DNA of 40,446 nt. Origin: a virus. Lineage: Duplodnaviria; Heunggongvirae; Uroviricota; Caudoviricetes. Both the position numbers and the translations under genes were made by a program. This document shows, one piece after another, positions 1,367-33,969 of the stretch; position 1 is the stretch's first letter, and the number at the start of each line of letters is the position of its first letter. Below the pieces are notes generated by a model. That model was not told the origin of the DNA, did not search any database, and saw nothing but the letters and a program-made list of their open reading frames with translations. The DNA is taken from IMG/VR virus record IMGVR_UViG_2630968766_000009; one strand, written 5' to 3'.

Positions 1367-4768
<3,402 letters not shown>

Positions 4769-9728: not shown

Positions 9729-10155
9729 ACCGGACTCCTCCTGCGATCCCTTCTGATACTGTCATCAGCATTACGTCATCCTCCGTCATGTCCGCCACAT
9801 CCGGGGAAGCGGGGATAACTTCACTCCCGTCCGGGCCAAAGCGGACACCTCCGGCAAGCCCTGCCGCTTTCTGCATCAGCACATCATCTTCAGGCTCTTC
9901 GTCAGCCTCGCGCCGGTTCAGCAGACTGAAATCCAGCGGATGCATATCCGGATCGCTGAAAAACAGGCTGAGTACGGTGTACGTCAGCCCGGAAAAGTGC
10001 ATATCCAGCAGAACATCATGAAAATAATGGGTACTGTAAAAGCGGTGCCAGTCGGCATACTCCGTGGATGACATCCCGGCAAGCATGGCACGCCAGTCGG
10101 GTCGCCCCATCTCGCGCGCCAGTTTCAGGGCAAAACTCAGCTCACCGTCGAACAC
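9721..10155 (-). CDS. T: T-frame extension of tail assembly chaperone gpGT (made by -1 frameshift from G)
   Basis: 144-aa ORF overlapping the 3' end of G in the -1 frame; lambda gpT is expressed only as the G-T fusion. Confidence 0.8.
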   Translation of the reverse strand: MFDGELSFALKLAREMGRPDWRAMLAGMSSTEYADWHRFYSTHYFHDVLLDMHFSGLTYTVLSLFFSDPDMHPLDFSLLNRREADEEPEDDVLMQKAAGLAGGVRFGPDGSEVIPASPDVADMTEDDVMLMTVSEGIAGGVRYG

Positions 10156-10559
10156 TTTCCCGCAGAAACAGGCTCTGCGGGCCCGGCGTCCTCTGTCTGT
10201 TCAGGGGCATTATTCACCACAAACTCATACATACCAGACAGCCGGTACACCACGTTTTCAGCATGAGAAATTGCCTCCGTGGGCCAGGTGGTAAGCACTT
10301 CCTGCTCAATCTGTTTAACGGCTTCATTCATGGACGGCATCTGCGTCTTCTGCGGATGGTTATGCCACAGGGACATCGCCACCAGAAACGCGCCGGTTCT
10401 GATGGCGTCTTCCACAGTAAACTTCCGGTTGCTGTCTGACTCCGCCTGTTCTGCCTGCCGTTTCATCAGGGCGAGATGCTCAATGCGCTGCAGGGCTGAC
10501 AGTTCAGAAAGCGTGACGGTCACACCGTTATGTTCAAATGATTCGGTTTTCAGGAACAT
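10137..10559 (-). CDS. G: Tail assembly chaperone G
   Basis: 140-aa ORF (lambda gpG length) immediately downstream of V. Confidence 0.9.
   Translation of the reverse strand: MFLKTESFEHNGVTVTLSELSALQRIEHLALMKRQAEQAESDSNRKFTVEDAIRTGAFLVAMSLWHNHPQKTQMPSMNEAVKQIEQEVLTTWPTEAISHAENVVYRLSGMYEFVVNNAPEQTEDAGPAEPVSAGKCSTVS
10155..10161 (-). other. Programmed -1 ribosomal frameshift slippery site GGGAAAG (G to G-T)
   Basis: The minus strand reads GGGAAAG at 10161-10155, inside the G/T overlap, where the lambda slippery heptamer lies. Confidence 0.6.
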
Positions 10560-10574
10560 CGCTGACTCTCCGGA

Positions 10575-11315
10575 TTAACTGGCGGTGACGGTAATTTCTG
10601 CAACCGCAGCAAACTCACCATTACCGGATACAACCGGAATGTTGACCTTGCCTGCAGCAACGCCGTTCACGGTGATGGTCATACCACTGACCGACACGGT
10701 GGCTTTTGTTTTATCCGCAGACACCGCACGAAAGCTCTTGTCGGTTACGCCCTCCGGCTGGAAGGCCACGGTCAGCGTGGTGCTCTGCCCTTTCACCACC
10801 GAGGTGCTGGCAGGCGTCACGGTCATGCCGGTTGCCGCTGTTACCGTGCTGCGATCTTCTGCCATCGACGGACGTCCCACATTGGTGACTTTCACCGTGC
10901 GGGTGATCACTTCCTTCGCCGTCACCGCCTTACCGATACTGCTGACCCAGCCACGGAACACATCGACCGTGCCGTTCGGGAAGCGGATTTTATAGGCACG
11001 GGTATCGCCTTCATTAAACCACGCCAGCAGCGCCTGCTGCCCCTGCTCTCCGGGCATCCACGCCAGCGTGAAGCTGGTATCTCCGGCAGATTTCTGCCCC
11101 TGCCCGGTCGCAGTCCAGTCTGCATCTTCATCATCGAGATAGCTGTCGTCATAGGACTCAGCGGTCAGTTCGCCGGGCGTCAGGTCTTTAACTTTTGCCA
11201 GACGCGACCAGTCAACGTCTGAAAGCGGATTCGCATAAGGGTCACCGCTCCCCTTATAAACCCACAGGGTGGTCCCGGCACCTTTCACCGGCATTGTAGG
11301 ATTTGGTACAGGCAT
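10575..11315 (-). CDS. V: Major tail tube protein V
   Basis: ORF-track frame 10575-11345, trimmed to [22 protein letters not shown] (246 aa, lambda gpV length); C-terminal Ig-like region. Confidence 0.9.
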
Positions 11316-11322
11316 AGCGTCC

Positions 11323-11718
11323 TCACATTTCATAGGTAATGACATAAGTCAGATCGGCTGAACTCCACAGGCCCGCATCATCGTCGCGCCGGTAGTCATA
11401 GCCGCTGGCCACCATACTGGTGATCAAATCTGACAGTGCCGGGATATCGCTCATCACCGGATAAATCCGGGACTCCATCCACGCATCCAGCTCTGAATCC
11501 GGCACCTGAGCAGGCAGGAAAACTTCGATATGCAGCTCCGCCTGCCAGGTATCGCTGTCCAGCTCTTCGCCCGTGTATTCAGCGCCGGTGAGATAAACGG
11601 CAACTGCCGGAAAATCCGCCTCATCAAAAACAGCGGGGCGACCATCAAAAAACGTCGCCCCGGTGTCATGCTTCTCCAGTGCATCCAGTACGGCTGCACG
11701 GAGTTCAGTATGTTTCAT
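11323..11718 (-). CDS. U: Tail terminator protein U
   Basis: 131-aa ORF (lambda gpU length), its start overlapping the Z stop. Confidence 0.9.
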
Positions 11719-12293
11719 CGCTTTATTACCATCCTCAGTTGATGCTGCAGCGCATAGCCCAGCTCTTTCGGAAGACGTTCACGCCGTATCCGCTCAATAT
11801 TTTGTTTAAACGCCGTGGTCAGCGGCACCGCCATCGGGATTTTCACCACATCAATGGGGTAACGGTTTTTCCCGGCCACACGCTGCATGACATGCCACCG
11901 GCCATTTTTCAGTTGCTGAATAAACGCGCCGGGAATACGACGGTTACCCACCACAAGCACGCTGCCGCCACCTTTCAGGGATGAACGCTGCCCCTTTTTA
12001 CGACGCCTGCGGCGCGAAAGGACAACCCGCGCATTACCCAGCTTGATTACGGGCAAATCCCCCCGGTTAACTTTGATTCTGGCCTGCGGATTTTTGACCG
12101 TGGCCCTTTTCAGCCTGGCCCTTTCCTTTACCAGTTTCCGGCGTACCTTTGTCTCACGGGCAACCTGTGACGCCGACTGCGATATCGCGGATGAAGCAAC
12201 GCGGTTAATGGCCATTGCGGCGGCAGCGGGCACCGCCGTTCTGCTGATACGGCTGAGGTTTTCAACGGCCTGCTCAAGACCTTTTATGGCCAT
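11715..12293 (-). CDS. Z: Tail completion protein Z
   Basis: 192-aa ORF, lambda gpZ length and position. Confidence 0.9.
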   Translation of the reverse strand: MAIKGLEQAVENLSRISRTAVPAAAAMAINRVASSAISQSASQVARETKVRRKLVKERARLKRATVKNPQARIKVNRGDLPVIKLGNARVVLSRRRRRKKGQRSSLKGGGSVLVVGNRRIPGAFIQQLKNGRWHVMQRVAGKNRYPIDVVKIPMAVPLTTAFKQNIERIRRERLPKELGYALQHQLRMVIKR

Positions 12294-12304
12294 ACATCCC
12301 CCTT

Positions 12305-12658
12305 TCAGCGGCGACGGTTAACGGCAGGCGGTACGCCCCGTCCAAGCCAGAGATGACAGCTTCCACCATCATCCGGCGAAACCCGATCTACCCAGAAATT
12401 TTCCTCACCGATGGTCAGCGTGTCTCCACGCCGCAGCTGCCGCACCTCATCAGTCCGGACAAACAGGGACGGGCTGGAGCCTTCAACGCGCACGCCCTGT
12501 CCGGCATAGCTGATATTTTCAGGGTCATCAAAAACACCACGTATCACCGCACCTGACTGCTCACCGGATGTCATGGTGGCTGACGTTCCCATGTACCCGC
12601 GAATCGTTTCATCGGCGCGGGCAATGGCAGCATCGAACAGGTTATCGAAATCAGCCAC
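12305..12658 (-). CDS. FII: Head-tail connector protein FII
   Basis: 117-aa ORF, lambda gpFII length and position. Confidence 0.9.
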   Translation of the reverse strand: MADFDNLFDAAIARADETIRGYMGTSATMTSGEQSGAVIRGVFDDPENISYAGQGVRVEGSSPSLFVRTDEVRQLRRGDTLTIGEENFWVDRVSPDDGGSCHLWLGRGVPPAVNRRR

Positions 12659-12669
12659 AGCGCCTCCCG

Positions 12670-13068
12670 TTATTGCATTCTGGCCAGGCCGCGCTCTGTC
12701 ATTTCGGCTGCCACACCGGCAGAGACACGAAACGCCGTTCCCGGCAGCACAAATGCCACAGGTTCATCCCGCGTGGCGTGAAGTGCATCAGTATGCAGCT
12801 TCACCAGTGCCACGACCGTGACCAGTTCAGACGTATCCAGAATCACGGTATCCGGCTGCGCTGATCCCACCTCATTTTCATGTCCGGTCAGCACATTTTC
12901 CCGGCTGAGAGGGGTGTCCTGACCGGCAGTTTCATCCGTGTCATCAAGCTCCTCTTCCAGCTCTGCCACACGGAGCGCCAGTTCTTCTTTCGTCCCCGTC
13001 AGGCTGACATCACGGTTCATTTGTTCACCCAGCGAGCGGAGACGGGCAATCAGTTCATCTTTCGTCAT
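12670..13068 (-). CDS. FI: DNA packaging protein FI
   Basis: ORF-track frame trimmed to MTKDELIARLRSLGEQ... (132 aa, lambda gpFI length). Confidence 0.85.
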   Translation of the reverse strand: MTKDELIARLRSLGEQMNRDVSLTGTKEELALRVAELEEELDDTDETAGQDTPLSRENVLTGHENEVGSAQPDTVILDTSELVTVVALVKLHTDALHATRDEPVAFVLPGTAFRVSAGVAAEMTERGLARMQ

Positions 13069-13109
13069 GGACTCCTCCACAGAGAAACAATGGCCCCGAA
13101 GGGCCATGA

Positions 13110-14135
13110 TTACGCCAGTTGTACGGACACGAACTCATCAGGGTCAGCCAGCAGCATCAGCGGTGCTGACTGAATCATGGTGAACTCACGCGCCGGATCG
13201 CCGGTGGTCACCCAGTTTTTCGGGTAACGGGCAGAGGCGTTAATGCCTTCGCGCTGTGCGTCCGCATCCTGAATGCAGCCATAGGTGCGCAGACCGCGTG
13301 CCTGAGTGTTCCCCAGCACCATCGTGTTGTCCGGCAGGAAGTTCTTTTTGACGCCGTTTTCCACGTACTGTCCGGAATACACGACGATGGCCACATCGCC
13401 ATACATCCCCTTATAGGACACCGCTTTACCCAGGTCTTTCACCGCTGTCTCCAGCTCGGAATTAGAGCCACGACGGGTATCCAGCTTCTCCTTGACGGCT
13501 TTGAAGGAACGGAACAGCGCCCAGCCTTTCGGATCGAACACGATGATATTCACCACACCGCTGGCGTTCAGCGCGTAGGCTTCGATATCGTCGGTCGGGT
13601 CATACGTGGACTTGTCACGCTTGCTCCACTCCGTGCCGCCGGACTGCGTGATGTTATTCTCCTCACTGCGGCCCATATCCACCTCAACCGGATCGAAGGC
13701 TTCACCGGTCATGGTGTATTTGCCCTTAAGCACGGCAGAAACTGCCTGCATCTCTTCGACCTGAGCAATGGCCAGCTCTTCGTCACGCATGTTCTGCATG
13801 ATGATGCGACGGCGGCGGTAAGCCGGGTCCGCCAGATTCTGCGGATCTTCATCCGGCAGGCGACGCAGGGTCATCTGCGGATTCACTTCATGCTTCGGCT
13901 TGACATATCCCGGCGTAAATTCAGAGGTGGAGCCGCCACGGGTACGGATAACCTCACCGGAAACAATCGGCGAAACGTACAGCGCCATGTTTACCAGTCC
14001 CGGAATTTGTGAGAGATAGACTTTCTCCGTGGTGAAGGGATAGCTCTCACGGAAAAAGAGACGCAGAAACAGCGGATCAAACTTAAATTTCTGCTCATTT
14101 GCCGCCAGCAGTTGGGCGGTTGTGTACATCGACAT
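13110..14135 (-). CDS. E: Major capsid protein E
   Basis: ORF-track frame trimmed to MSMYTTAQLLAANEQKFKFDPLFLRLF... (341 aa, lambda gpE length). Confidence 0.9.
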   Translation of the reverse strand: MSMYTTAQLLAANEQKFKFDPLFLRLFFRESYPFTTEKVYLSQIPGLVNMALYVSPIVSGEVIRTRGGSTSEFTPGYVKPKHEVNPQMTLRRLPDEDPQNLADPAYRRRRIIMQNMRDEELAIAQVEEMQAVSAVLKGKYTMTGEAFDPVEVDMGRSEENNITQSGGTEWSKRDKSTYDPTDDIEAYALNASGVVNIIVFDPKGWALFRSFKAVKEKLDTRRGSNSELETAVKDLGKAVSYKGMYGDVAIVVYSGQYVENGVKKNFLPDNTMVLGNTQARGLRTYGCIQDADAQREGINASARYPKNWVTTGDPAREFTMIQSAPLMLLADPDEFVSVQLA

Positions 14136-14190
14136 AAAAAAATCCCGTAAAAAAAGCCGCACAGGCGGCCTTTAGTGATGAAGGGTAAAG

Positions 14191-14523
14191 TTAAACGATG
14201 CTGATTGCCGTTCCGGCAAACGCGGTCCGTTTTTTCGTCTCGTCGCTGGCAGCCTCCGGCCAGAGCACATCCTCATAACGGAACGTGCCGGACTTGTAGA
14301 ACGTCAGCGTGGTGCTGGTCTGGTCAGCAGCAACCGCAAGAATGCCAACGGCAGCACCGTCGGTGGTGCCATCCCACGCAACCAGCTTACGGCTGGAGGT
14401 GTCCAGCATCAGCGGGGTCATTGCAGGCGCTTTCGCACTCAATCCGCCGGGCGCGGTTGCGGTATGAGCCGGGTCACTGTTGCCCTGCGGCTGGTAATGG
14501 GTAAAGGTTTCTTTGCTCGTCAT
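14191..14523 (-). CDS. D: Head decoration protein D
   Basis: ORF-track frame trimmed to [27 protein letters not shown]... (110 aa, lambda gpD). Confidence 0.9.
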
Positions 14524-14532
14524 AAACATCCC

Positions 14533-15832
14533 TTACACTGGTGTGTTCAGCAAATCGTTAACGGCATCAGATGCCGGGTTACCTGCAGCCAGCGGTGCCG
14601 GTGCCCCCTGCATCAGACGATCCAGCGCAGTGTCACTGCGCGCCTGTGCACTCTGTGGTGCTGCGGCCAGAATGCGGCGGGCCGTTTTCACGGTCATACC
14701 GGGGGTTTCTGCCAGCACGCGTGCCTGTTCTTCGCGTCCGTGAGCCTCCTCACAGTTGAGGATCCCCATAATGCGGCTGTTTTCTGCCGCAACCGCAGCG
14801 GTGATCTGCGCGTTCACGTCCGGCTGCGCCGCGCTGGCGTTTTCGCCCTCCGTCGCTTGCACCACGCCAGTAACGTCAGCCTGCGAAGCAGTGGCTGAAA
14901 CAGTTGTTGATTGAGTCTCTTTGGTCATTCGCCCTCCTGAGAGACGGGATTTACGTGCATCCAGTGCATCACGCATAACGGTGATCGCATCGGTGCTGTT
15001 GACAAGTTCATCAGCCAGTCCGGCATCAATGGCCTCCTGACCGCTGTACACTGCAGCCTCGGTATCCAGCACAGCCTGCACGGACAGGCCGGTATATGCC
15101 GACACCTTCTGCGCAAACATCCGGCGGGTTGCATCCATCCGGGACTGCAGTGTCTCCCGGACGTCATCCGGAAGATGGCTGTAGGGGTTGCCATCCACCT
15201 TATGGCTGCCGCTGTAAATCAGCGTGATTTCCACGCCCTGTTTCTCCAGCGCAGCACCGTAATTACTGTGAGCCATCATGACGCCGATGGAGCCTGTCCG
15301 GGCGGTCTGCGTGACCAGACGCCGGGAGGCGGCGCTGGCAAGCAGCTGCCCTGCACTGCAGTTCATGTCATTGGCCAGCGCCCATACCGGTTTTATGTCA
15401 CGCACACGGGCGATGATGTCAGCGCAGTCAAATGCCCCTGCCACCATTCCGCCGGGCGTGTCCATATCGAGCAGAATGCCGTCCACCATCGGATCGCTGG
15501 CAGCCTGTTGCAGACGGGCGATAATGCCGTTGTAACCGGTCATCCCCGAGTACGGCTGCAGCGCCCGCGTCCGGCTGACCAGCGTGCCGGACACCGGCAG
15601 CACGGCGATGCCGTTCATGACCTGATAACTGCGGGCCTGTCGTGGTCCGTCATCATCACCGGATAATGCCAGCGTCGCGAGTGCCTCCTGGGCAGTCAGG
15701 CTGTCGCCGGACACCGCATCCGTCAGGCGGCTGATCCCAAGCTGGCCTGCAAGCGCACAAAAGAAAACCCGCGCATAGGCGGGTTCAAGCATCAGCGGCT
15801 CATTAAAGGCCATGCTGGCAATATGCGGGAGA

Positions 15833-15852
<20 letters not shown>
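14533..15852 (-). CDS. C: Head maturation protease / scaffold C (Nu3 scaffold is the in-frame 3' part)
   Basis: Long frame 14533-15987. The lambda-like product begins at ...TAELRNLPHIASMAFNEPLML with a GTG codon at 15852, giving 439 aa (lambda gpC length). ClpP-like serine protease region. Confidence 0.8.
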
Positions 15853-19533
<3,681 letters not shown>

Positions 19534-23105: not shown

Positions 23106-24203
23106 ATGAAAAAATTAACAGTGGCAATTTCTGCTGTAGCTGCATCAGTACTGATGGCGATGTCTGCTCAGGCAGCTGAAATTTATAATAAAGACAGTAA
23201 CAAGCTGGATCTGTACGGGAAAGTTAATGCCAAGCACTACTTTTCCTCTAACGATGCAGATGATGGTGATACTACTTATGTTCGTCTGGGCTTCAAAGGC
23301 GAAACCCAAATCAACGATCAGCTGACTGGTTTCGGTCAGTGGGAATATGAATTCAAAGGCAACCGCGCTGAATCTCAAGGTTCCTCCAAAGACAAAACCC
23401 GTCTTGCATTTGCAGGCCTGAAATTCGGTGACTACGGCTCAATCGATTACGGCCGTAACTACGGTGTAGCATACGACATCGGTGCGTGGACTGACGTTCT
23501 GCCAGAATTCGGTGGCGATACCTGGACCCAAACAGATGTGTTCATGACTGGTCGCACCACTGGTGTTGCAACCTATCGTAACAACGACTTCTTTGGTCTG
23601 GTTGATGGTCTGAACTTTGCTGCTCAGTACCAAGGCAAAAACGATCGTAGCGATTTCGATAACTACACCGAAGGTAACGGTGATGGCTTCGGTTTCTCTG
23701 CTACCTATGAATACGAAGGGTTCGGTATCGGTGCAACTTATGCGAAATCTGATCGTACCGACACTCAAGTTAATGCAGGGAAAGTTCTTCCTGAAGTATT
23801 TGCTTCCGGTAAAAATGCAGAAGTTTGGGCCGCAGGTCTGAAATATGACGCTAACAACATTTACCTGGCCACTACCTATTCTGAAACCCAGAATATGACT
23901 GTATTTGCTGATCACTTCGTTGCTAATAAAGCTCAAAACTTCGAAGCTGTTGCACAATATCAGTTCGATTTCGGTCTGCGTCCGTCCGTTGCTTACCTGC
24001 AATCTAAAGGTAAGGATCTTGGAGTATGGGGCGATCAGGACTTAGTCAAATATGTTGATGTAGGTGCAACCTATTACTTCAACAAAAATATGTCTACTTT
24101 CGTTGATTACAAAATCAACCTGCTTGACAAAAATGACTTCACTAAAGCACTCGGTGTAAGCACTGATGACATCGTTGCTGTAGGTCTGGTTTACCAGTTC
24201 TAA
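23106..24203 (+). CDS. nmpC: Phage-encoded general porin (OmpC/OmpF family; NmpC/Lc-like)
   Basis: 365-aa ORF with a signal peptide ([23 protein letters not shown]), porin-like sequence and C-terminal ...VGLVYQF. Preceded by a 540-bp AT-rich region and an AAAAGGG RBS. Confidence 0.9.
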
Positions 24204-25647: not shown

Positions 25648-25810
25648 GATTCCTCCTTGCTGCCAGTCGCAACCATTTTTTATCAACCAGGCTAGCGGTA
25701 TATCCGAGCAGTGTTGGTATTTCGGATGGCTTCAGCTCAGGCTTACGCTTACGACGATTTGATACTCTGTAGATGTGTCCGTTCATGACACGAATAAGCG
25801 GTGTAGCCAT
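25640..25810 (-). CDS. ninE: NinE-like small protein
   Basis: Manual translation: [56 protein letters not shown] (56 aa); its ATG overlaps the ninB stop (TAATG). Confidence 0.5.
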   Translation of the reverse strand: MATPLIRVMNGHIYRVSNRRKRKPELKPSEIPTLLGYTASLVDKKWLRLAARRNHG

Positions 25811-26265
25811 TACGCCTCCTGCTTGTCGCGGAGCAGCTGGAACTCGCAGCTCTGCGGAATAGTCAGGTGGCAGCCAATATTCACCGCCCAGGCTTCAACC
25901 TTACACAGGAAGACATACATCTCTCCGGTATCAAGATCGGAGGTATAGCGTAATGACTGAATGGTGGTGATTTCACCGGTTACGACATCAACCAGGTCTT
26001 TGGTTTCAAAACCGAGATAAGTGTGTTTGAGAGCATCTTTTACCCAAGCTGCAGTAGCGAACGATTTCCCCCTGCTTATGAGGTATTCACTGATTTCGCT
26101 GTACCACATGTGGCTAAGTGCATTCTGGGAAAGACTGCGTCTCTCGCGCCACGGTTTAAGCACCATGCGAAAGCATTTTCCGTCCTCCAGATAAGGCTGG
26201 ATCTGCTGACCGATAGCGGTGAAGTTACCGCGATGTAATTTGATGCCGTCTTGTGGGAGGTTCAC
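25810..26265 (-). CDS. NinB/YbcN-family recombination protein
   Basis: 151-aa ORF in the nin-region position; remembered as similar to DLP12 YbcN. Confidence 0.7.
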
Positions 26266-26475
26266 GCTTCACCTCCGCAGAGGTCAAACGTTGGATGCAA
26301 AAAATCGCAGGTGCATTTCTGCATCTGTGAAGGGAGAAGAGAGTTTGGATTGTGTGTGCGCATAAACGTCCCCGTTTAGCGCAGAAGTCACCGGAGTTGT
26401 TCAGGTTCCGGTGATACAATTATGGCGAATTGATGACGGAGAATCAATTTTGCGAAAATGACACGATTGATCTAC

Positions 26476-27108
26476 TCAGGCCTTGGAAAGCTTGAGCTTA
26501 CCCTTTACGTGCAGAGTGTTAATTAACCAGAAGGCCCCGAGCAAACACATACAATGCGCGCTAGTGACTAACTTACAAATACGAATGCGATTTTCTTCAA
26601 GATCAGGAGGTAGCTCTTTCATCAACGCTATAGCGTAGATTCCATCCTTGAGAATTGGCTCAACAACTTGATGCACGTAGCCACCATGGTTAATCTCTTC
26701 TAACTTTATGTTTTTAATCGATTCTGCGAGTTTATCAACCTCTTCATTTGTAATTACATATTCAATTTTATGAGCGTACTTGTTACGTATTGTGTTGAGC
26801 TCAGCCATAGCGTCTGCAAGCGAGACAGGAAGCCCTAACAGAACTGCGGCAGACAGCTTTGACGCAAAATACTTATAGCTTCTTATCGAATTGTATTTTT
26901 CAGAGCCATCAGGTCGTAAGTTTTCAATAACAACCCGAAGAAAGTCCTCATGAATTAGCATCAATTTTAATAGCGCGGCAGACTCATCCTCATAGTTAGC
27001 TATCGAGGCCATTTTATTAAGATCTAGAAAATAGCCAAAGTCATGATCGATTTTCACGTAGTTACCCTCATCCGTTGTTGGACTTTGTTCAATTCGAGAG
27101 AATTTCAT
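26476..27108 (-). CDS. Hypothetical protein with a HEPN-like R-x4-H motif (candidate toxin / abortive-infection effector)
   Basis: 210-aa ORF in AT-rich DNA; motif ELNTIRNKYAHK (RNxxAH) typical of HEPN RNase active sites; hydrophobic C-terminal segment LLGAFWLINTL. Start overlaps the upstream small ORF stop (ATGA). Confidence 0.55.
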   Translation of the reverse strand: MKFSRIEQSPTTDEGNYVKIDHDFGYFLDLNKMASIANYEDESAALLKLMLIHEDFLRVVIENLRPDGSEKYNSIRSYKYFASKLSAAVLLGLPVSLADAMAELNTIRNKYAHKIEYVITNEEVDKLAESIKNIKLEEINHGGYVHQVVEPILKDGIYAIALMKELPPDLEENRIRICKLVTSAHCMCLLGAFWLINTLHVKGKLKLSKA

Positions 27109-27281
27109 TTATCTTCCTCCTGTTTCATATATCTAGGGTCAGATGCTTTAGGCTGGGTGATGCTATGCTCAATGGAGAAGCCGGACGCGCTCCATGTTGA
27201 TTTGCCAGTTTGAGCTATCGTGACAACACATTCATTATTGTCGATGTTAACTTCGCGCAGCACTGGTAACTGTGAATTCAT
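27105..27281 (-). CDS. Small hypothetical protein (58 aa) coupled to the HEPN-like gene
   Basis: Manual translation: MNSQLPVLREVNIDNNECVVTIAQTGKSTWSASGFSIEHSITQPKASDPRYMKQEEDK; a GGAG RBS precedes the ATG and the stop overlaps the next start. Confidence 0.4.
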   Translation of the reverse strand: MNSQLPVLREVNIDNNECVVTIAQTGKSTWSASGFSIEHSITQPKASDPRYMKQEEDK

Positions 27282-27443
27282 TTTCTAACTCCTGTTTAAT
27301 GTTGACACCGCATTTATGCTGTCACGACACAATTACTTTCTATCCTGCTGTGATGCTGCTGACAGCGGCATCCAATACCTTACCTTCTCAGCATTCTGCA
27401 AAATCGATGACGAGTCATGACCGGTTCGCGTAGCTCAGTGAAA

Positions 27444-28067
27444 TTACTGCAACCTTTCCTGACGGAAATATGGTAACACTCGACTCCACTTATCATCCTG
27501 CCAAGGCTGGAATTTTACATGTGCCGTTTCTCTGGCGAGGATTGCTCGCGCTCTGTTGAGTATCTGGGGATATTCTTGCTCGATAGAAGTAAAGCGACCG
27601 GCTTCGCGGTGCTCCGCGACCTGAAGAAGTGGAGTAACGTTCTGGCAGGCAGTTAACATCACATCACTTGCTCGCCATAACCAAGCAAGTGTGCAAAGTT
27701 CGTTATCAGTGAATTGTTTTGTGATTGGGGATTGTTGAATTTCTCGATCGAGAATATCCAGCACCCAGCGGCGGAACTCTTTGGCTACAGGAGTTCGTGC
27801 AAACATGGCGATCAGGTGAGCGCCGCGCAGGGAGAATACACGCACTTTTTTTCTGTAATTTCCTGAGGTCACTGATTCGATGACCTGAGTCATACCGCTA
27901 GTAAATTCGTCGGCATTCTGGTTGAACAGATTAGTTACTGACTTTGCGCTTTTGTACTGTAAAGCGTTCGCGATTTCGGTAGAGGTCAGCCAGATTCCTG
28001 TCATGCCAGCAACCGGTACAATCGCTTTACCTTGGAAGTTCAGATCTGATCTTGCTACAATATTCAT
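27444..28067 (-). CDS. Bro-N domain antirepressor-like protein
   Basis: Frame 27444-28148; N-terminal LNFQGKAIVPVAGMTGIWLTSTEIANALQY and ...SLRGAHLIAMFARTPVAKEFRRWVLDIL match the Bro-N pattern. Start chosen at MNIVAR (AGGA RBS); the alternative ATG at 28148 overlaps the upstream RHH gene. Confidence 0.65.
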   Translation of the reverse strand: MNIVARSDLNFQGKAIVPVAGMTGIWLTSTEIANALQYKSAKSVTNLFNQNADEFTSGMTQVIESVTSGNYRKKVRVFSLRGAHLIAMFARTPVAKEFRRWVLDILDREIQQSPITKQFTDNELCTLAWLWRASDVMLTACQNVTPLLQVAEHREAGRFTSIEQEYPQILNRARAILARETAHVKFQPWQDDKWSRVLPYFRQERLQ

Positions 28068-28137
28068 GTCGATATTTCCTACGCGGTTATTTTCGATAGA
28101 AGCCCCTGAGGTTGCCGCCAACGGGGCTTCGCTGTTT

Positions 28138-28296
28138 TTAGCGAGCATGTATCCGCTCTCTAAATTTCAATGCCCACACAAGCGCCTGAACAATAGCGGC
28201 GTTCTCAGACATCCCTTCCTCCTGTGCAATTCGCTTGAATTCATCCTTCACATTTTGCGGATAGCGAAGGGTGATTTTTACTTCTTTCTTTTCCAT
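28138..28296 (-). CDS. Arc-like ribbon-helix-helix repressor
   Basis: Frame trimmed to MEKKEVKITLRYPQNVKDEFKRIAQEEGMSENAAIVQALVWALKF... (52 aa); AGGAG RBS 7 nt upstream; RHH beta-strand and helix pattern. Confidence 0.6.
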   Translation of the reverse strand: MEKKEVKITLRYPQNVKDEFKRIAQEEGMSENAAIVQALVWALKFRERIHAR

Positions 28297-28396
28297 TGAT
28301 ATCTCCTTGTGAGGCCATAATGACACCATGAGGCCATAATGCCACCATTGAATTGATGTGGCAATATGGCACCATTCATTTTTTTGGGGATTTCCA
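28297..28396. promoter_or_regulatory. Divergent promoter/operator region with tandem 19-bp repeats
   Basis: gaggccataatgacaccat and gaggccataatgccaccat in tandem, then a third partial copy (gcaatatggcaccat), between the two divergently transcribed RHH genes. Confidence 0.4.
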
Positions 28397-28699
28397 ATGG
28401 CTGATAAACAAGTAAAAAACTATGATAAGTTTAACCTCCGTTTCCCTGATGGGATGCGTGAAGCTATAGCTGAACGTGCCAAGCGTAATGGCCGCTCAAT
28501 GAACTCAGAAATCGTGCAAATACTTGAAGATGCGCTTTATACAGACAGTGCACGAGTGTTCACCGTTGAAGATGAAGTGAATCACTCAGGGAATGTAGCA
28601 ATAGATCCCGTGCAACTTGAGAAATTAATGGAAAAAGTGATAAACAAGGCATTAATGGGCTTTACAGGATCGCCTGCAAAAAAAATTGATAAAAAATAA
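28397..28699 (+). CDS. Mnt/Arc-like ribbon-helix-helix repressor
   Basis: Frame trimmed to MADKQVKNYDKFNLRFPDGMREAIAERAKRNGRSMNSEIVQILEDAL..., close to the P22 Arc/Mnt RHH motif (FNLRxP...NGRSxNSEI), with about 50 extra C-terminal residues. Confidence 0.65.
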   Translation: MADKQVKNYDKFNLRFPDGMREAIAERAKRNGRSMNSEIVQILEDALYTDSARVFTVEDEVNHSGNVAIDPVQLEKLMEKVINKALMGFTGSPAKKIDKK

Positions 28700-28738
28700 A
28701 AAAATTATTAGAAACTTCTGCTATATGACTAAGGATAA

Positions 28739-29221
28739 ATGATGAGTAAATTTGATCGTTATTTACAAAGAGAAATTCTGGCTTTAGCTATTGATGCCTA
28801 CCCTGCTTATATTGGTCATAAACACTCTAAAATTCCAGCCAGCTATGAGTTATTAAAAAATGCCAAAGAAGATTTGGTGTATCCTAATATACATTACTTG
28901 CATGAACACAGCTTAATAAATTTCGATAAGATAGGATATAGAAATAACAACAGTAATCCCTTAGCATGGGTAAAAGCAACCTCTCACGGCATTGATTTCG
29001 TTCAGCAGGATGGAGGCCTTTCTGCCATTCTAAACGTCAAAACAATCAGGTTTCATAAAGACACTATAGTTGTACTGGAAGACCTCATAGCGATTTCAAA
29101 TATGAATGATACTGATAAAGAAAAGGCTAAATCTATTCTTTCTGAATTACCAGTTGATGCAATTAAAACAGTTGTACAAACACTTACAACTACAGCTCTA
29201 AATGCGTTGCTAAAATCATAA
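28739..29221 (+). CDS. Hypothetical protein (160 aa), AT-rich, downstream of the Mnt-like gene
   Basis: ORF begins 40 nt after the Mnt-like stop with an AAGGA RBS; no domain recognised. Confidence 0.45.
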   Translation: MMSKFDRYLQREILALAIDAYPAYIGHKHSKIPASYELLKNAKEDLVYPNIHYLHEHSLINFDKIGYRNNNSNPLAWVKATSHGIDFVQQDGGLSAILNVKTIRFHKDTIVVLEDLIAISNMNDTDKEKAKSILSELPVDAIKTVVQTLTTTALNALLKS

Positions 29222-29366
29222 ACGCTCCTATGAAAGGCTTGTCCTTATGGTTATGACTTAGGAGGATCATCGTTATCCCTCAATCAATAAATATAAATTT
29301 ACCACGACGAAATTAAATATTTTTAATACAACCGGCATTAACACTTAAAGCAATAATAGTGAGTTA

Positions 29367-29789
29367 TTAAGATGTAATACGGTAAGTTGAAGTATTTTCT
29401 CCTTTATAACAGTTCAAAACATTAAATTTATTGACCAATTTGACCATGCCAGAATTTACGTTTACCACTACCATTTCAACAACTGGCAGTTTCTTAAGCA
29501 ATGAAGAAATTACTTGAAATCCTATTGATTTTCCCTGCATGCTTTTAGCTATATGAATTTCATGCAAAAATATGTAACCTTCACGAGGGATTGATATATC
29601 CAAATTCATATATTCAATCTCTACATACCCAACTAAATAACCTTGGTGCTTTATAAAATAGATATTCTGCACATCATTGATTTCATAAACTTTTTGGCTC
29701 CAGCCATAACTAGAACGGTAGGTATTTAACGTTATAAGTTTTTTATCATCAGGTAGATTACAAGAAGCAAACTTAACAAAATTAACCAT
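29367..29789 (-). CDS. GNAT-family acetyltransferase-like protein
   Basis: 140-aa ORF in very AT-rich DNA; segment IFLHEIHIAKSMQGKSIGFQVISSLLKKL resembles GNAT motif A (R/Q-G-K-G-I-G with one substitution). Confidence 0.45.
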   Translation of the reverse strand: MVNFVKFASCNLPDDKKLITLNTYRSSYGWSQKVYEINDVQNIYFIKHQGYLVGYVEIEYMNLDISIPREGYIFLHEIHIAKSMQGKSIGFQVISSLLKKLPVVEMVVVNVNSGMVKLVNKFNVLNCYKGENTSTYRITS

Positions 29790-30112
29790 AATCTAACCTT
29801 CCGTTAATTTCCGAATAGTTATAATAAAAACATAATCGATTTGCCGTTTCTTATCCACAATATGGTAGACTCGTGAACGTGCTATAATGATATTATATCA
29901 TACCAACATTTTTATAGCTCTCCCTAAATTTTCGTCTTCAGTGGGCCACCTGAAAACACCGTTTGTCATGTTTTTCTACCTAGCGCCCTCTTTCGCCAGA
30001 ATACCTTCCTCCCGGTTGATACTGACTATGGTCGCACTAGTCGATTCTGCAACATCAGTCGCACAGAAATTCTGGTGCGTTTCCAAGTAGTGAATAATTG
30101 CCTCTTTGCCCG

Positions 30113-30814
30113 TCATACAGTTGCTCCTTTCAGTCCGAACTTCGCTTTAATTTCTGCGATCTTCGCCAGAGCCTGTGCACGATTTAGAGGTCTACCGCCC
30201 ATGACAGGAAGTTGTTTTACTGGTTCAGGTATAGCCTCACCACGGTTAATTCGTGCGGTCATACAGGACAGTTCATCGGCAGCCTTGCGCCGTAATTCCG
30301 CGTCAGTCAACGCATTGGCCCGCATGTTCTGATACAGGTTGGTAACCAGCCAGTAGTGCGCGTTTGATTTCCACGGATAAGACTCTGCATCCGGATACAG
30401 CCCGCGCTTCCGGCAATACTCGTAAACCATATCAACCAGCTCGCTGGCGTTTGGCAGCCCGGCGGTAACGGATGCTTCTTCCCGGCACCAGGCGACAAAC
30501 TGCCCGGGTGATGGCAGGAATGGTCGATTCTGCCGACGGGCTACGCGCATTCCAGCGTTAACCTGTTCCATTGTGGTGATCCCGTTTTCCCGGAAAGCCA
30601 GCACCCACTGGCGGCGGATTTCGTTCAGTTCATTCTGGTCACGGTTAGCCAGGCTCGCCGGGAAAGTTGCCAGTAACTGGCTGAACACACCATTGATGAT
30701 CTGCGCTACCTGTTGTACCTGCGGCTTTTCGTCGTACTGTTCCGGCATGTTGTTGGCGATCCGGCGCATCTGCTCACGGTCAAAGTTAACCATCTGTGCG
30801 GCGATGTTTTTCAT
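30113..30814 (-). CDS. P: Replication protein P (DnaB helicase loader)
   Basis: 233-aa ORF, lambda gpP length; start overlaps the O stop. Confidence 0.9.
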   Translation of the reverse strand: MKNIAAQMVNFDREQMRRIANNMPEQYDEKPQVQQVAQIINGVFSQLLATFPASLANRDQNELNEIRRQWVLAFRENGITTMEQVNAGMRVARRQNRPFLPSPGQFVAWCREEASVTAGLPNASELVDMVYEYCRKRGLYPDAESYPWKSNAHYWLVTNLYQNMRANALTDAELRRKAADELSCMTARINRGEAIPEPVKQLPVMGGRPLNRAQALAKIAEIKAKFGLKGATV

Positions 30815-31740
30815 AAATCCACCCCGTAAATCCAGTCAGTGTTTGTCAGGTCGAGTTTTGGTTTGCTGGCTATCATGCCTGCCTGTTGCTTGTTACGGTT
30901 GATTTCGAGTTGGGTCCACTTGTCGCGGAGTTTGGCCGGACTTAGCACGTTACCGGACCAGAAGTTGTCCTGGCATGCCCAGCGGAAAAGCACGCACATG
31001 TCGCGGTGGTTACGTCCGTCACGTTCACGCATCAGGCGGATATCGTTAGCCCACCCTGCAAAATTCGGTTTTCTGGCTGATGGTGCGATGGTCTTCACCA
31101 TGTCAAACATCCACTCTGCGGCGGTCAGGTCTTCTGCTGTCCCCCACTTGCTGCCGCTCTGAATTGCAGCATCTGGTTTCACCACAGGAAGATCGTTTTC
31201 TGGTTGGTCAGAGGATTCGCCAGAATTCTCGGACGAAAAAGGTTTTATATTGTCTTTTGTTAGTTTGTCTTTTGTGTTTACCTGATTCGGGTAAACGCCT
31301 TTACCTGATTTGGGTAAACTTTTCTTACCTGATTCAGGTAAATTTACCTCTTTCAGGTAAACTTTATTTTTCTTACCTGATTCGGGTAATGTTGACCATT
31401 CACTGACCACATTATTAATACCGATATTCCGCCCGCTCTGAATCAAAATCCCACGCTTTACCAGAACACTTTTTGCAGCAGAACACTTGTGCGGTAATAT
31501 CCCGGTCAATCCGGACAGTTGCTCGTTGCTCACCCAATCCAGTTTTTTATTAAAGCCATATGTTTTGCGCATGACAGCCAGGAAGACCAGAAGCTGGTGC
31601 TGTGTTAATCCGGCCAGCATCACAGCTTCCAGCAACTCATTTGCAATGCGCGTATAACCATCATCGAGATCTGCCACGCGCGGCTCCTTTTGTGCCGCAT
31701 CCGGCACTGGAAAATTGAATATCTCAGCAGTGTTTGCCAT
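30811..31740 (-). CDS. O: Replication initiator protein O
   Basis: Frame 30811-31830; start chosen at MANTAEIFNF... (ATG 31738-31740) because GGGAGGAATT lies just upstream. Internal LPESGKK repeats are encoded by the iterons; the C-terminal part is lambda O-like. Confidence 0.85.
   Translation of the reverse strand: MANTAEIFNFPVPDAAQKEPRVADLDDGYTRIANELLEAVMLAGLTQHQLLVFLAVMRKTYGFNKKLDWVSNEQLSGLTGILPHKCSAAKSVLVKRGILIQSGRNIGINNVVSEWSTLPESGKKNKVYLKEVNLPESGKKSLPKSGKGVYPNQVNTKDKLTKDNIKPFSSENSGESSDQPENDLPVVKPDAAIQSGSKWGTAEDLTAAEWMFDMVKTIAPSARKPNFAGWANDIRLMRERDGRNHRDMCVLFRWACQDNFWSGNVLSPAKLRDKWTQLEINRNKQQAGMIASKPKLDLTNTDWIYGVDL
31277..31391. repeat. Replication origin iterons (inside O) with adjacent AT-rich region
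   Basis: Five direct repeats of about 18 bp: ttacctgattcgggtaaa, ttacctgatttgggtaaa, ttacctgattcaggtaaa, ttacctctttcaggtaaa, ttacctgattcgggtaat. The AT-rich tract lies at 31230-31276. Confidence 0.6.
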
Positions 31741-32630: not shown

Positions 32631-32734
32631 TTCCTATTGGTATTACAATGAATGGATAATAGCAATGCGTATTAACCCAATCAATAGCAAAACGTGTTTT
32701 GACCATCAATACGCAAGCGTATAAATTAAAACTT
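32631..32734. promoter_or_regulatory. oR-like region: divergent pR and pRM with operator-like imperfect palindromes
   Basis: Minus-strand TTGATT-N17-TATTAT (plus coordinates 32656-32684) upstream of the cro-like gene. Plus-strand TTGACC ... TATAAA 9 nt before the cI ATG. Motifs such as taatagcaatgcgtatta recur at the pL-side site. Confidence 0.4.
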
Positions 32735-33427
32735 ATGAAAAAAGAAACTCTTGCTGATCGCTTAAACCTAGCGATGGAACAATCTGGAATGTCTCAAGGC
32801 GCTCTTGCAAAGGCGTCTGGCGTAGCTCAACCCACAATCTGGAGACTGACAAGCGGCAACGCACGCGGCTCAACAAAAATTGTTGAAATAGCTAATGCAT
32901 TGGGTGTTCGAACAGAGTGGCTCTCATCAGGCATAGGCCCGATGAGAAATGACGGTCAACAATCAGGGAAGCCTGCTGCCAACCATCCCAAATACTTCAA
33001 GATTGACGTTCTTGATATAGAAGTGAGTGCCGGGCCGGGAGTCATCAACCGTGAGTTTGTAGAAGTTCTACGCTCGGTTGAGTACTCGTTTGACGATGCT
33101 CGTCACATGTTCGATGGCAGGAAGGCAGAAAATATCCGCATCATTAACGTACGCGGTGACAGCATGTCAGGAACGATCGAACCAGGTGATCTTCTGTTCG
33201 TTGATATCACTGTTAAATCTTTCGACGGTGATGGTATCTATGCGTTTCTGTATGACGACACAGCCCATGTTAAGCGCCTGCAAATGATGAAGGATAAACT
33301 GCTGGTTATCTCTGATAACAAGAGCTACTCACCGTGGGACCCAATCGAGAAAGACGAGATGAACCGGGTGTTTATCTTCGGGAAAGTTATTGGGAGCATG
33401 CCGCAAACATACAGGAAACATGGATAA
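32735..33427 (+). CDS. cI: CI-type repressor (N-terminal HTH, C-terminal LexA-like S24 autopeptidase)
   Basis: Frame trimmed to MKKETLADRLNLAMEQSGMSQGALAKASGVAQPTIWRL...; C-terminal GDSM...KRL Ser/Lys dyad. Confidence 0.85.
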   Translation: MKKETLADRLNLAMEQSGMSQGALAKASGVAQPTIWRLTSGNARGSTKIVEIANALGVRTEWLSSGIGPMRNDGQQSGKPAANHPKYFKIDVLDIEVSAGPGVINREFVEVLRSVEYSFDDARHMFDGRKAENIRIINVRGDSMSGTIEPGDLLFVDITVKSFDGDGIYAFLYDDTAHVKRLQMMKDKLLVISDNKSYSPWDPIEKDEMNRVFIFGKVIGSMPQTYRKHG

Positions 33428-33507: not shown

Positions 33508-33969
33508 ATGAGAATACTAGGTGTTAGGGCGGCGCCCAAAGTTACATCTTTTGTTGTATATTGCACTGATGAGTCTGCACTCAAATGTGTTGATGTTATT
33601 AAAATACCTTCGACCTTAGACACACCAGAAAAATTAAAGTATGTGCGAAATAACATCCTCGACATTCTTAATTTATATAATGTTGAATTAGCTGCTATAC
33701 GCGTTACTGAATCAAACTCTGATAATCTTAGCATTGACCGCCTTTATATAGAAGCTGTTATTCAAGAAGCATTTTCAAGCAGTGATGTAAGAAGATATTA
33801 CACCATTAGAAAATCTGGTATGAAGTCATCATTGAACCTAACAGAGATCGAGTATAAAGAAATATTGAAGTCACACCGTAATATAAATGGAATCGATAAT
33901 TCTGGTTTTACAACTGAAACAAATGAAGCTGTTTTGGCTGCACTATCTGCGGAGGTAAGGGGATGCTGA
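33508..33969 (+). CDS. Hypothetical protein (153 aa), translationally coupled to the kinase gene
   Basis: AT-rich ORF MRILGVRAAPKVTSFVVYCTDE...; its stop overlaps the kinase start (ATGCTGA). No domain recognised with confidence. Confidence 0.55.
   Translation: MRILGVRAAPKVTSFVVYCTDESALKCVDVIKIPSTLDTPEKLKYVRNNILDILNLYNVELAAIRVTESNSDNLSIDRLYIEAVIQEAFSSSDVRRYYTIRKSGMKSSLNLTEIEYKEILKSHRNINGIDNSGFTTETNEAVLAALSAEVRGC

Follow-up and report, generated by a model that had tools for sequence, protein, structure and literature searches.

HepS is a single-protein abortive-infection system of Salmonella Gifsy-1 (STM14_3211; PDB 9oij and 9oik; Sargen et al., Nature 2026; PMC13043305). At rest it forms a tetramer that lacks activity, and it becomes active through direct binding of residues 902 to 933 of the siphovirus tail-tip protein J, among which F924 is critical; active HepS then cuts tRNA anticodon loops, with tRNA-Thr(GGT) as the main target (PMC13043305). 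Gifsy phages escape HepS by carrying I in place of F924, and when this I is changed to F in Gifsy-1 J in the presence of hepS, particle production is nearly abolished (PMC13043305). No conserved neighbor of hepS has been reported (PMC13043305). The same self-targeting problem arises for Tha of Staphylococcus aureus prophages (PMC11087260), which is likewise a HEPN RNase encoded by prophages and switched on by a tail protein. However, Tha has been described as an entirely different system: a non-specific RNase that responds to a different tail protein and is tolerated by repression of the defense (PMC13043305). Here we analyze positions 26266-30112 of a 40,446-nt stretch of DNA (the window, by which we mean the whole stretch), a full lambda/DLP12-like E. 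coli prophage in reverse orientation. A HepS homologue, an antirepressor switch of the P22 immI type and two genes without described function lie there in the slot between ren and ninB.

The setting is that of DLP12-type prophages. Gene order in the window includes J, an nmpC-like porin gene, quuD, ylcG, rusA, ybcO, ninE and ybcN/ninB (25810-26265); past the AT-rich stretch come P (30113-30814), O, a YdaT-domain gene at the cII position, a cro-like gene and an S24-type repressor gene. Early-right transcription uses the minus strand and runs from high to low coordinates. Since lambda ren and ninB lie only 73 nt apart, the roughly 3.6 kb of cargo found between them here counts as an insertion between the two genes. 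The DLP12-type ren-ybcN slot has the same insertion site and the same backbone (P, ren, ylcH, ybcN, ninE, ybcO, rusA, ylcG, quuD and the nmpC-like porin) and shows the same modular turnover of cargo: EmrE/YbcK, PD-lambda-1 (DUF4041, in PhiR26_1) and other hypothetical genes occupy it in related phages and prophages. What differs is the cargo. The exact combination in the window occurs in only 14 of the 5,426 complete E. coli genomes that we surveyed, where the block 25800-30820 is 99.4-100% identical among strains of varied source. We think it probable that the stretch consists of at least three independently swapped cargo cassettes in this variable ren-ninB/ybcN slot of lambdoid prophages, built by modular recombination. 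What we show concerns homology and domain content, the geometry of the genes, breakpoints and distribution.

Comparison by BLAST with five sibling loci placed sharp breakpoints at 26459/60, 27196/97, 27436/37, 27842, 28533 and 30049-30060, at or near gene or domain edges. Cassette 1 (26460-27436) carries the HepS homologue; cassette 2 (27437-28533) carries the P22 immI-like switch; cassette 3 (28534-30050) is AT-rich, carries a winged-helix gene and a GNAT gene, and truncates ren. Distribution among the surveyed genomes differs from part to part: hepS is present in 18 and the stretch with the 160-aa winged-helix and GNAT genes in 14; about 300 have the N terminus of the mnt-like gene with its operator region, and about 2,680 have the backbone segment next to ninB on its upstream side. 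The original prediction had seen a single island here. The breakpoints and genome distributions instead describe a mosaic of independently distributed cassettes. The seven open reading frames (ORFs) that it named all exist, are annotated in identical RefSeq copies, and include no lambda core gene, just as it had said. Its identification of HEPN-like, antirepressor, two ribbon-helix-helix (RHH) and GNAT-like genes was likewise borne out, each by profile, solved-structure or fold evidence.

Is the stretch as a whole AT-rich? Its G+C content (GC) is 40.3%, compared with 48.6% in the flank from Q to ninB and 51.0% in the flank from P to the cII-like gene. This falls in the lowest 0.5% of segments of the same length in the 40-kb window, and no other 3.8 kb there is as AT-rich. 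The claim of an AT-rich region thus holds overall. The difference from the flanks, which we assessed by GC and by GC at third codon positions, is uneven, however: GC is 42% in the HepS cassette, 46% in the immI-like cassette and 33.9% in 28534-30050. By gene, ant (47.9%) and arc (44.7%) are near the flank values, so the claim that the ORFs are visibly more AT-rich than the flanks stands for the 160-aa and GNAT genes, whose GC at third codon positions is 0.27, but not for ant and arc. Strong AT-richness is confined to the right-hand 1.5 kb or so, 28534-30050.

Both edges of the stretch were also set differently in the original prediction. On the left, 26266-26459 belongs to conserved backbone upstream of ybcN/ninB (26262-26459, minus strand), which contains a ylcH-like 33-aa ORF (26262-26363) and a terminator-like hairpin (26306-26323). 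This backbone, which in all takes in 25800-26459, can be aligned as far as 26459 with PhiR5_1 and PhiR26_1 at 93%, and the start of 26364-26450 is matched in about 2,680 of the E. coli genomes. The hairpin sits about where tR2 lies in lambda. On the right, the edge falls inside ren at about 30050-30060. The prediction that ren and the nin genes had been replaced held in part for ren alone. ybcN/ninB, ninE, ybcO, rusA, ylcG and quuD are all present, and ren remains as a truncated gene (29976-30116, minus strand) of 46 aa, compared with 96 aa for lambda Ren; 44 of the 46 aa align, at 61% identity, with Ren residues 1-44. RefSeq treats it as an incomplete pseudogene, and DNA homology with other ren genes stops at 30049-30060. 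In three sibling prophages, the segment of about 130 nt that corresponds to 26295-26426 (ylcH and terminator) has a second copy across the ant cassette (L003 3930-4018, L004 4169-4300, L005 4463-4604). The copies are direct repeats of 83-96% identity. Such repeats are a plausible substrate for exchange and could mediate gain and loss of cassettes.

Cassette 1 encodes a 210-aa single-domain HEPN protein (26476-27108, minus strand) that is 50% identical to Salmonella HepS over its full length, matches phrog_5712, and aligns over residues 1-208 with HepS of PDB 9oij in a phmmer search (E 1.8e-60). Its motif R108-N-K-Y-A-H113 aligns with HepS R100-H105, the HEPN RX4-6H motif, and is invariant in 12 homologues. 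The residues equivalent to catalytic R100 and H105, allosteric Y20 and I107, modeled tRNA-contact K71 and N101, and L83 are all conserved. Among the residues of the switch (Y20, I107), the tetramer interface (F66, K78, L83) and tRNA contact (K71, N101), five of seven are identical (Y26, I115, L91, K79 and N109), F66 is conservatively replaced by Y, and K78 is replaced by S. Like its Gifsy-1 counterpart, then, it is a lone HEPN protein of about 210 aa with an RNKYAH motif, and it too has replication, antirepressor and nin genes around it in a lambdoid prophage. Homology to Gifsy-1 HepS suggests a resting tetramer without activity that, once it bound a structural protein of a phage, would cut tRNA anticodon loops and abort infection. 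We therefore regard it as a predicted trigger-activated tRNA anticodon nuclease acting in abortive infection. A tRNA scan of the window found zero tRNA genes, which leaves no tRNA-based compensation for an anticodon nuclease within it.

The two proteins differ where HepS meets its trigger. Of the trigger-contact residues S13, D15, S202 and T203, D15 alone is kept; S13 corresponds to K19, S202 to K209 and T203 to A210. In the window protein, moreover, six residues are inserted in the N-terminal strand that binds the trigger, and the C terminus is 7 residues shorter than that of Salmonella HepS. All of these trigger-site changes are shared by the clade to which it belongs, whose members are 75-96% identical to it and come from E. 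coli, Citrobacter, Enterobacter and Klebsiella aerogenes. The hepS allele of the window is found in three contexts in its 18 E. coli genomes, and a tblastn search of 50,697 phage records gave no match to this HepS homologue.

Gifsy phages have I at position 924 of J. What does the window prophage carry? Its tail-tip gene J (1367-4765, minus strand) encodes a protein 90% identical to lambda J, and over residues 902-933 all 32 of 32 positions are identical, including F924. Two other E. coli prophage contexts with the same hepS allele also have F924; in one the peptide is identical, and in the other it has diverged and keeps Q922 and F924. Because J keeps F924 in a prophage that carries hepS, either the trigger differs or the published rule of self-tolerance does not apply. 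If HepS of this clade does respond to F924, the prophages that carry it would abort their own lytic cycle. Three explanations can be offered: the clade may be unresponsive to the lambda-type peptide, tolerance may be reached by another route (expression timing or another prophage factor, for example), or these prophages may be self-handicapped. That the clade's HepS is a functionally distinct variant, whose remodeled N- and C-terminal strands would recognize another trigger or allow coexistence with F924 by an undescribed form of self-tolerance, and that the winged-helix protein, the GNAT protein or both could in addition be new factors in superinfection defense or counter-defense, is a proposal that we make tentatively and consider rather less probable than its opposite.

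The start of hepS is overlapped (ATGA) by a 58-aa ORF (27105-27281, minus strand), for which Pfam and PHROG profile searches returned no family match. Only its last 20 codons or so are theta-derived; the N-terminal part is unrelated sequence. In Enterobacter prophages (L019, L020 and L021, 4750-5636), an intact gene for an 82-84-aa DNA_pol3_theta (HolE)-like protein precedes hepS with the same 4-nt overlap, and in one sibling locus (L005) the theta-like gene is frameshifted while hepS is intact. Salmonella hepS, by contrast, follows a dATP/dGTP pyrophosphohydrolase gene. We wondered if the 58-aa ORF might be a partner or antitoxin of HepS and rejected this candidate: it is a 5'-truncated theta-like gene, the gene has decayed in two independent ways in E. 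coli with hepS left intact, and Salmonella hepS has no such neighbor. Since hepS is intact through both kinds of decay, theta does not appear to be a required inhibitor. As far as the sequences can tell, the ORF is the scar of a theta-like gene and not a HepS partner. The Enterobacter hepS prophages also have, a little downstream of their lysis genes, a gene for a DUF4145 protein (227 aa; L019 9909-10592) or a DUF2513 protein (134 aa; L021 10089-10493), which may be further accessory genes.

Cassette 2 resembles the immI region of P22. Its antirepressor gene, ant (27444-28148, minus strand), encodes a protein with Bro-N and P22_AR_C domains (Pfam E 4e-9 and 4e-16, respectively) that matches phrog_245 Ant (E 6e-67) and is 23% identical to P22 Ant in its C-terminal region. 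The listed ORF has 234 aa. The real Ant probably starts at M28 (ATG at 28067; 207 aa), because this start gives the sar geometry of P22. Directly upstream of ant lies an arc-like gene for a 52-aa RHH repressor (28138-28296, minus strand; Pfam Arc E 2.5e-4; phrog_582) with 36% identity to P22 Arc over 45 aa. On the plus strand, an mnt-like gene (28397-28699; Pfam Arc E 1.2e-19) encodes a 100-aa RHH repressor that shares 58% identity with P22 Mnt across 36 aa. This gene is chimeric at 28533: the RHH part is common to PhiR5_1, and the C-terminal 53 aa come from AT-rich cassette 3.

The divergent arc/mnt control region (28297-28396, 100 nt) contains three direct 13-mers, ATAATGNCACCAT, at 28317, 28336 and 28363. 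Matches to the 13-mer in the window numbered 10 against 3.5 expected, a count not attained in any of 100 shuffles. A minus-strand promoter-like site (TTGCCA, 17 nt, CATTAT; 28364 to 28336) has its -10 element overlapped by one of the 13-mers. The same 13-mers are found in PhiR5_1, and in a divergent module (L016) the RHH proteins and the repeats are both different. We infer that the 13-mers are operator-like and candidate sites for Arc and Mnt.

Between arc and the likely ant start, the plus strand encodes a candidate sar-like antisense RNA of about 70 nt (28069-28139) with two stem-loops. Rfam model RF00262 matched 28069-28133 on the plus strand over its whole length with 32.8 bits (E 8.3e-5), which is below the Rfam gathering score of 43. 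The loop of stem-loop 1, UUUCCUA, is complementary to the Shine-Dalgarno sequence before ATG 28067. Stem-loop 2 is an intrinsic terminator, a GC-rich hairpin and U-run that ends near 28139. The predicted fold has -24 kcal/mol (z -2.1). PhiR5_1 (34 bits) and L016 (29.5 bits) have equivalent matches at this position, with the promoter and hairpins conserved. The Psar-like promoter (28032-28061, plus strand; TTGGAA, 18 nt, TACAAT, with a TG) lies inside the first ant codons and ends 8 nt upstream of the sar-like RNA; its -35 and -10 elements are kept in PhiR5_1 and L016. A search for LexA boxes found none in the stretch, which makes LexA control of ant of the Gifsy type unlikely.

How might such a switch work? 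Mnt-like repressor, made in the lysogen, would act at the 13-mer repeats to keep the arc-ant promoter silent. Should the promoter fire, Arc would limit its activity, and the sar-like RNA would mask the ribosome-binding site of ant. Ant, when made, would inactivate CI-type repressors and so promote induction or block lysogeny.

The likeness to P22 immI extends to gene geometry. Both have divergent mnt and arc-ant units, RHH proteins of the Mnt and Arc kind, and P22_AR_C in Ant. In the annotated P22 layout, sar begins right next to the ant ATG, with Psar within ant and the terminator at the arc stop codon, and the candidate RNA of the window would have the same geometry. Both also have a cargo slot downstream of mnt, which in P22 holds orf59a and then sieA. 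They differ in that the window switch lies in the early-right (nin) region and not in the late region, that its Ant has Bro-N, that its three direct 13-mers are unlike P22 Oarc and Omnt, that its Mnt-like protein has a different tail, and that its sar match scores below the Rfam threshold.

A second antirepressor control system is found at the same place. The C-terminal half of ant (27437-27842) is shared at 88-90% with many prophages, and the N-terminal half has been exchanged at 27842. In PhiR26_1 and two sibling prophages (L004 and L005), the same C-terminal half is preceded, at the same position, by control elements of the P1/P7 immI type, C4 RNA and isrK; the window lacks C4 and isrK, and this regulatory half is swapped there for arc, mnt and sar. 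The sibling copies comprise C4 antisense RNA (73-75 bits), its a1/b1 targets and isrK (59 bits), at L003 3561-3758, L004 3800-3997 and L005 4108-4304. Two classical antirepressor control systems, P22-type and P1-type, thus alternate at one locus.

Cassette 3 carries the two genes whose functions are undescribed. The first encodes a 160-aa winged-helix protein (28739-29221, plus strand), starts 39 nt past the mnt-like gene, and is opposite to lytic transcription. Its N-terminal winged helix (residues 1-90) is MarR/PadR-like and related to DUF2513/YjcQ. Against PF10711 (DUF2513) and PF09639 (YjcQ), the window protein is unmatched to E 0.1, and among 40 family members 10 match DUF2513 (best E 1e-4) and 8 match YjcQ. 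The family gave 159 matches, in which the N-terminal half is variable and a C-terminal helical region of about 75 aa is very conserved. The gene comes with a Shine-Dalgarno sequence of its own, and we detected no terminator in the gap that separates it from the mnt-like gene. Because it stands behind the mnt-like gene and against lytic transcription, we expect that it would be co-expressed with Mnt in the lysogen. Homologues lie directly behind mnt-like genes in the immI-like modules of L016 and Edwardsiella phage GF-2, between tail genes, on the strand opposite to them, in prophages of Klebsiella and Enterobacter, between lysis and terminase genes in PhiR49_2, and in the immunity region of a Pseudomonas phage. 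With low confidence, we suggest that the protein is a DNA-binding accessory or superinfection factor expressed in lysogens. A literature search found no useful paper on DUF2513 or on the PhiR phage records.

The second gene encodes a minimal GNAT acetyltransferase of 140 aa (29367-29789, minus strand), with a GNAT fold and the acetyl-CoA-binding motif A. Its family is rare, with 36 representatives among 1.84 billion proteins, and tblastn against the 50,697 phage records gave no match. One close relative (54% identity) is encoded on a phage-like scaffold (L015) beside Ea22-like and theta-like genes; the theta-like gene forms the end of that scaffold. Solved-structure comparison showed resemblance to generic or N-terminal acetyltransferases, and no TacT or AtaT was among the matches listed. 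An extended -10-like sequence, TGATATAAT, lies on the minus strand about 95 nt upstream, so that cassette 3 may add the GNAT gene together with its own promoter-like element. This sequence overlaps a near-perfect palindrome, ATGATAT-T-ATATCAT (29887-29901), in the AT-rich spacer between the GNAT gene and truncated ren. The palindrome overlaps -10-like hexamers on both strands and could be a candidate operator.

The original prediction had pointed to the stretch as a source of undescribed anti-phage or regulatory functions. It is indeed an accessory cargo region. However, the HEPN gene belongs to the HepS family (PMC13043305), and ant and the RHH genes are of the P22 immI type, which leaves just two genes undescribed in function, those for the 160-aa winged-helix and GNAT proteins. 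Defense-system prediction added nothing: a PADLOC-DB 2.0 scan of all proteins of the stretch, with a library that predates the description of HepS, gave only two marginal matches (E about 0.008-0.01) and no credible match to any ORF, and an NCBIfam scan of the same proteins gave none above cut-off.

Could the stretch nonetheless have arrived as one foreign AT-rich island, in a single acquisition that replaced ren and the nin genes? Its standing as the most AT-rich 3.8 kb of the window would fit such an event, as would the near-identity of the block in 14 E. coli genomes. Internal breakpoints split it relative to sibling prophages, however, its parts differ in genome distribution and in GC (42%, 46% and 34% by cassette), the nin genes are all present, and no integrase, transposase or flanking repeats were found within 26266-30112. 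This explanation is already contradicted by the breakpoint and distribution data, and we give it hardly any credence. We also asked if the cargo might be that of a cryptic prophage in decay, with most ORFs nonfunctional. The truncated ren points that way, as do the theta-like gene, reduced to a scar here and frameshifted in a sibling, and the clearly defective sibling L013, in which the capsid gene is interrupted and the protease gene has an internal stop. Yet the seven ORFs are intact and all have Shine-Dalgarno sequences, the HepS catalytic residues are all kept across a clade of 75-96% identity, the lambda-like structural module of the window is full-length, with J, H, L, portal and terminase all as long as in lambda, and the block is 99.4-100% identical across strains of very different source. 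Decay is thus an unlikely account of the cargo.

A further possibility is that the mnt-like RHH, 160-aa and GNAT genes form a new toxin-antitoxin or defense system like TacAT or AtaRT, in which an RHH or winged-helix antitoxin restrains an acetyltransferase toxin. Pairs of a GNAT toxin and an RHH antitoxin are an established kind of system; in the TacAT and AtaRT type, the toxin gene directly follows that of its RHH/DUF1778 antitoxin within one operon. Moreover, the three genes are adjacent, AT-rich, rare and present in the same 14 genomes, and the palindrome on the promoter-like -10 of the GNAT gene could be an operator for the neighboring winged-helix protein. The arrangement argues otherwise: the mnt-like and 160-aa genes converge with the GNAT gene, which shares no operon with them. 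On the GNAT strand, the next gene upstream is truncated ren; the mnt-like RHH gene, encoded by the other strand, is 670 nt distant. Homologues of the 160-aa gene occur alone or with mnt-like genes and never with GNAT, while the 54%-identical GNAT relative has neither a called Arc/RHH neighbor nor an evident gene of the 160-aa family. There was no match to a toxin or defense model of NCBIfam or PADLOC, no named GNAT toxin (TacT or AtaT) was among the structural matches listed, and the RHH part resembles Mnt and falls within the immI switch. We rejected the GNAT-RHH pair as a TacAT-like system because of its gene arrangement and the contexts of the homologues; a TacT-like toxin role for the GNAT protein is unlikely, and the wider three-gene proposal is improbable.

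We return to the reading that we prefer, a slot of exchanged cassettes that carries a HepS-type defense gene, a P22-type switch and two accessory genes. Several points weigh against parts of it. The J protein of the host prophage itself bears the activating F924 peptide. Relative to the characterized HepS, three of the four trigger hydrogen-bond residues are changed, and the six inserted residues stand before the N-terminal strand. In the switch, the N-terminal domain of Ant is Bro-N and not P22_AR_N, the sar-like score is below the gathering score, the three sar-like copies show no compensatory changes (they are too similar to inform), and promoter-like sites in the region are no commoner than in shuffled sequence. 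The roles proposed for the 160-aa and GNAT proteins are weak inferences from fold and position, and the expression pattern, the pairing of repressors with operators, the activity and trigger of HepS, and the winged-helix and GNAT roles are inferred from the observations described above.

Other loci also drew our attention. Beside the repressor gene of the window (32699-33427), a gene for a 348-aa Ser/Thr protein kinase (Pfam Pkinase E 1e-46) matches PADLOC PD-T4-6 (E 1.5e-36) and mad6 (E 8e-49) and is preceded by a 153-aa ORF without family match. The pair (33508-35009, plus strand) lies at the lambda rex position, in a stretch of about 35% GC that ranks second in AT-richness within the window; the kinase gene is probably another prophage defense gene. 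On the strand opposite to quuD and the lysis genes, and between them as in DLP12, an OmpC/NmpC-like porin gene (23106-24203, plus strand; 365 aa) is an accessory gene for an outer-membrane porin of host type. In L013, a prophage of E. coli 09A19CPO009, an element of about 11 kb (7516-19263) splits the major capsid gene; the protease gene with the internal stop is likewise that of the prophage. With genes for a tyrosine integrase, a primase and an Icd-like protein, for capsid and decoration proteins of its own and for a small terminase subunit, the element may be a phage satellite.

The region is thus largely ordinary, the exception being that the HepS homologue shares its prophage with a tail-tip protein that bears the published HepS trigger. 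As a whole, the slot offers a worked example of modular exchange, in which defense, regulatory and uncharacterized modules are swapped at gene or domain boundaries. The winged-helix family is a moron family widespread in temperate phages of Gammaproteobacteria, at positions expected to be expressed in lysogens, and this makes it a reasonable candidate for functional screening, as is the rare GNAT protein. Coexistence of HepS and F924 is a modest surprise and the most testable point of the region: the published rule, by which a silent J variant provides tolerance, can readily be tested on three E. coli contexts with F924, two of which have the exact peptide. The response of this HepS to lambda J would show whether the terminal strands set trigger specificity in the HepS family or whether other routes to self-tolerance exist.

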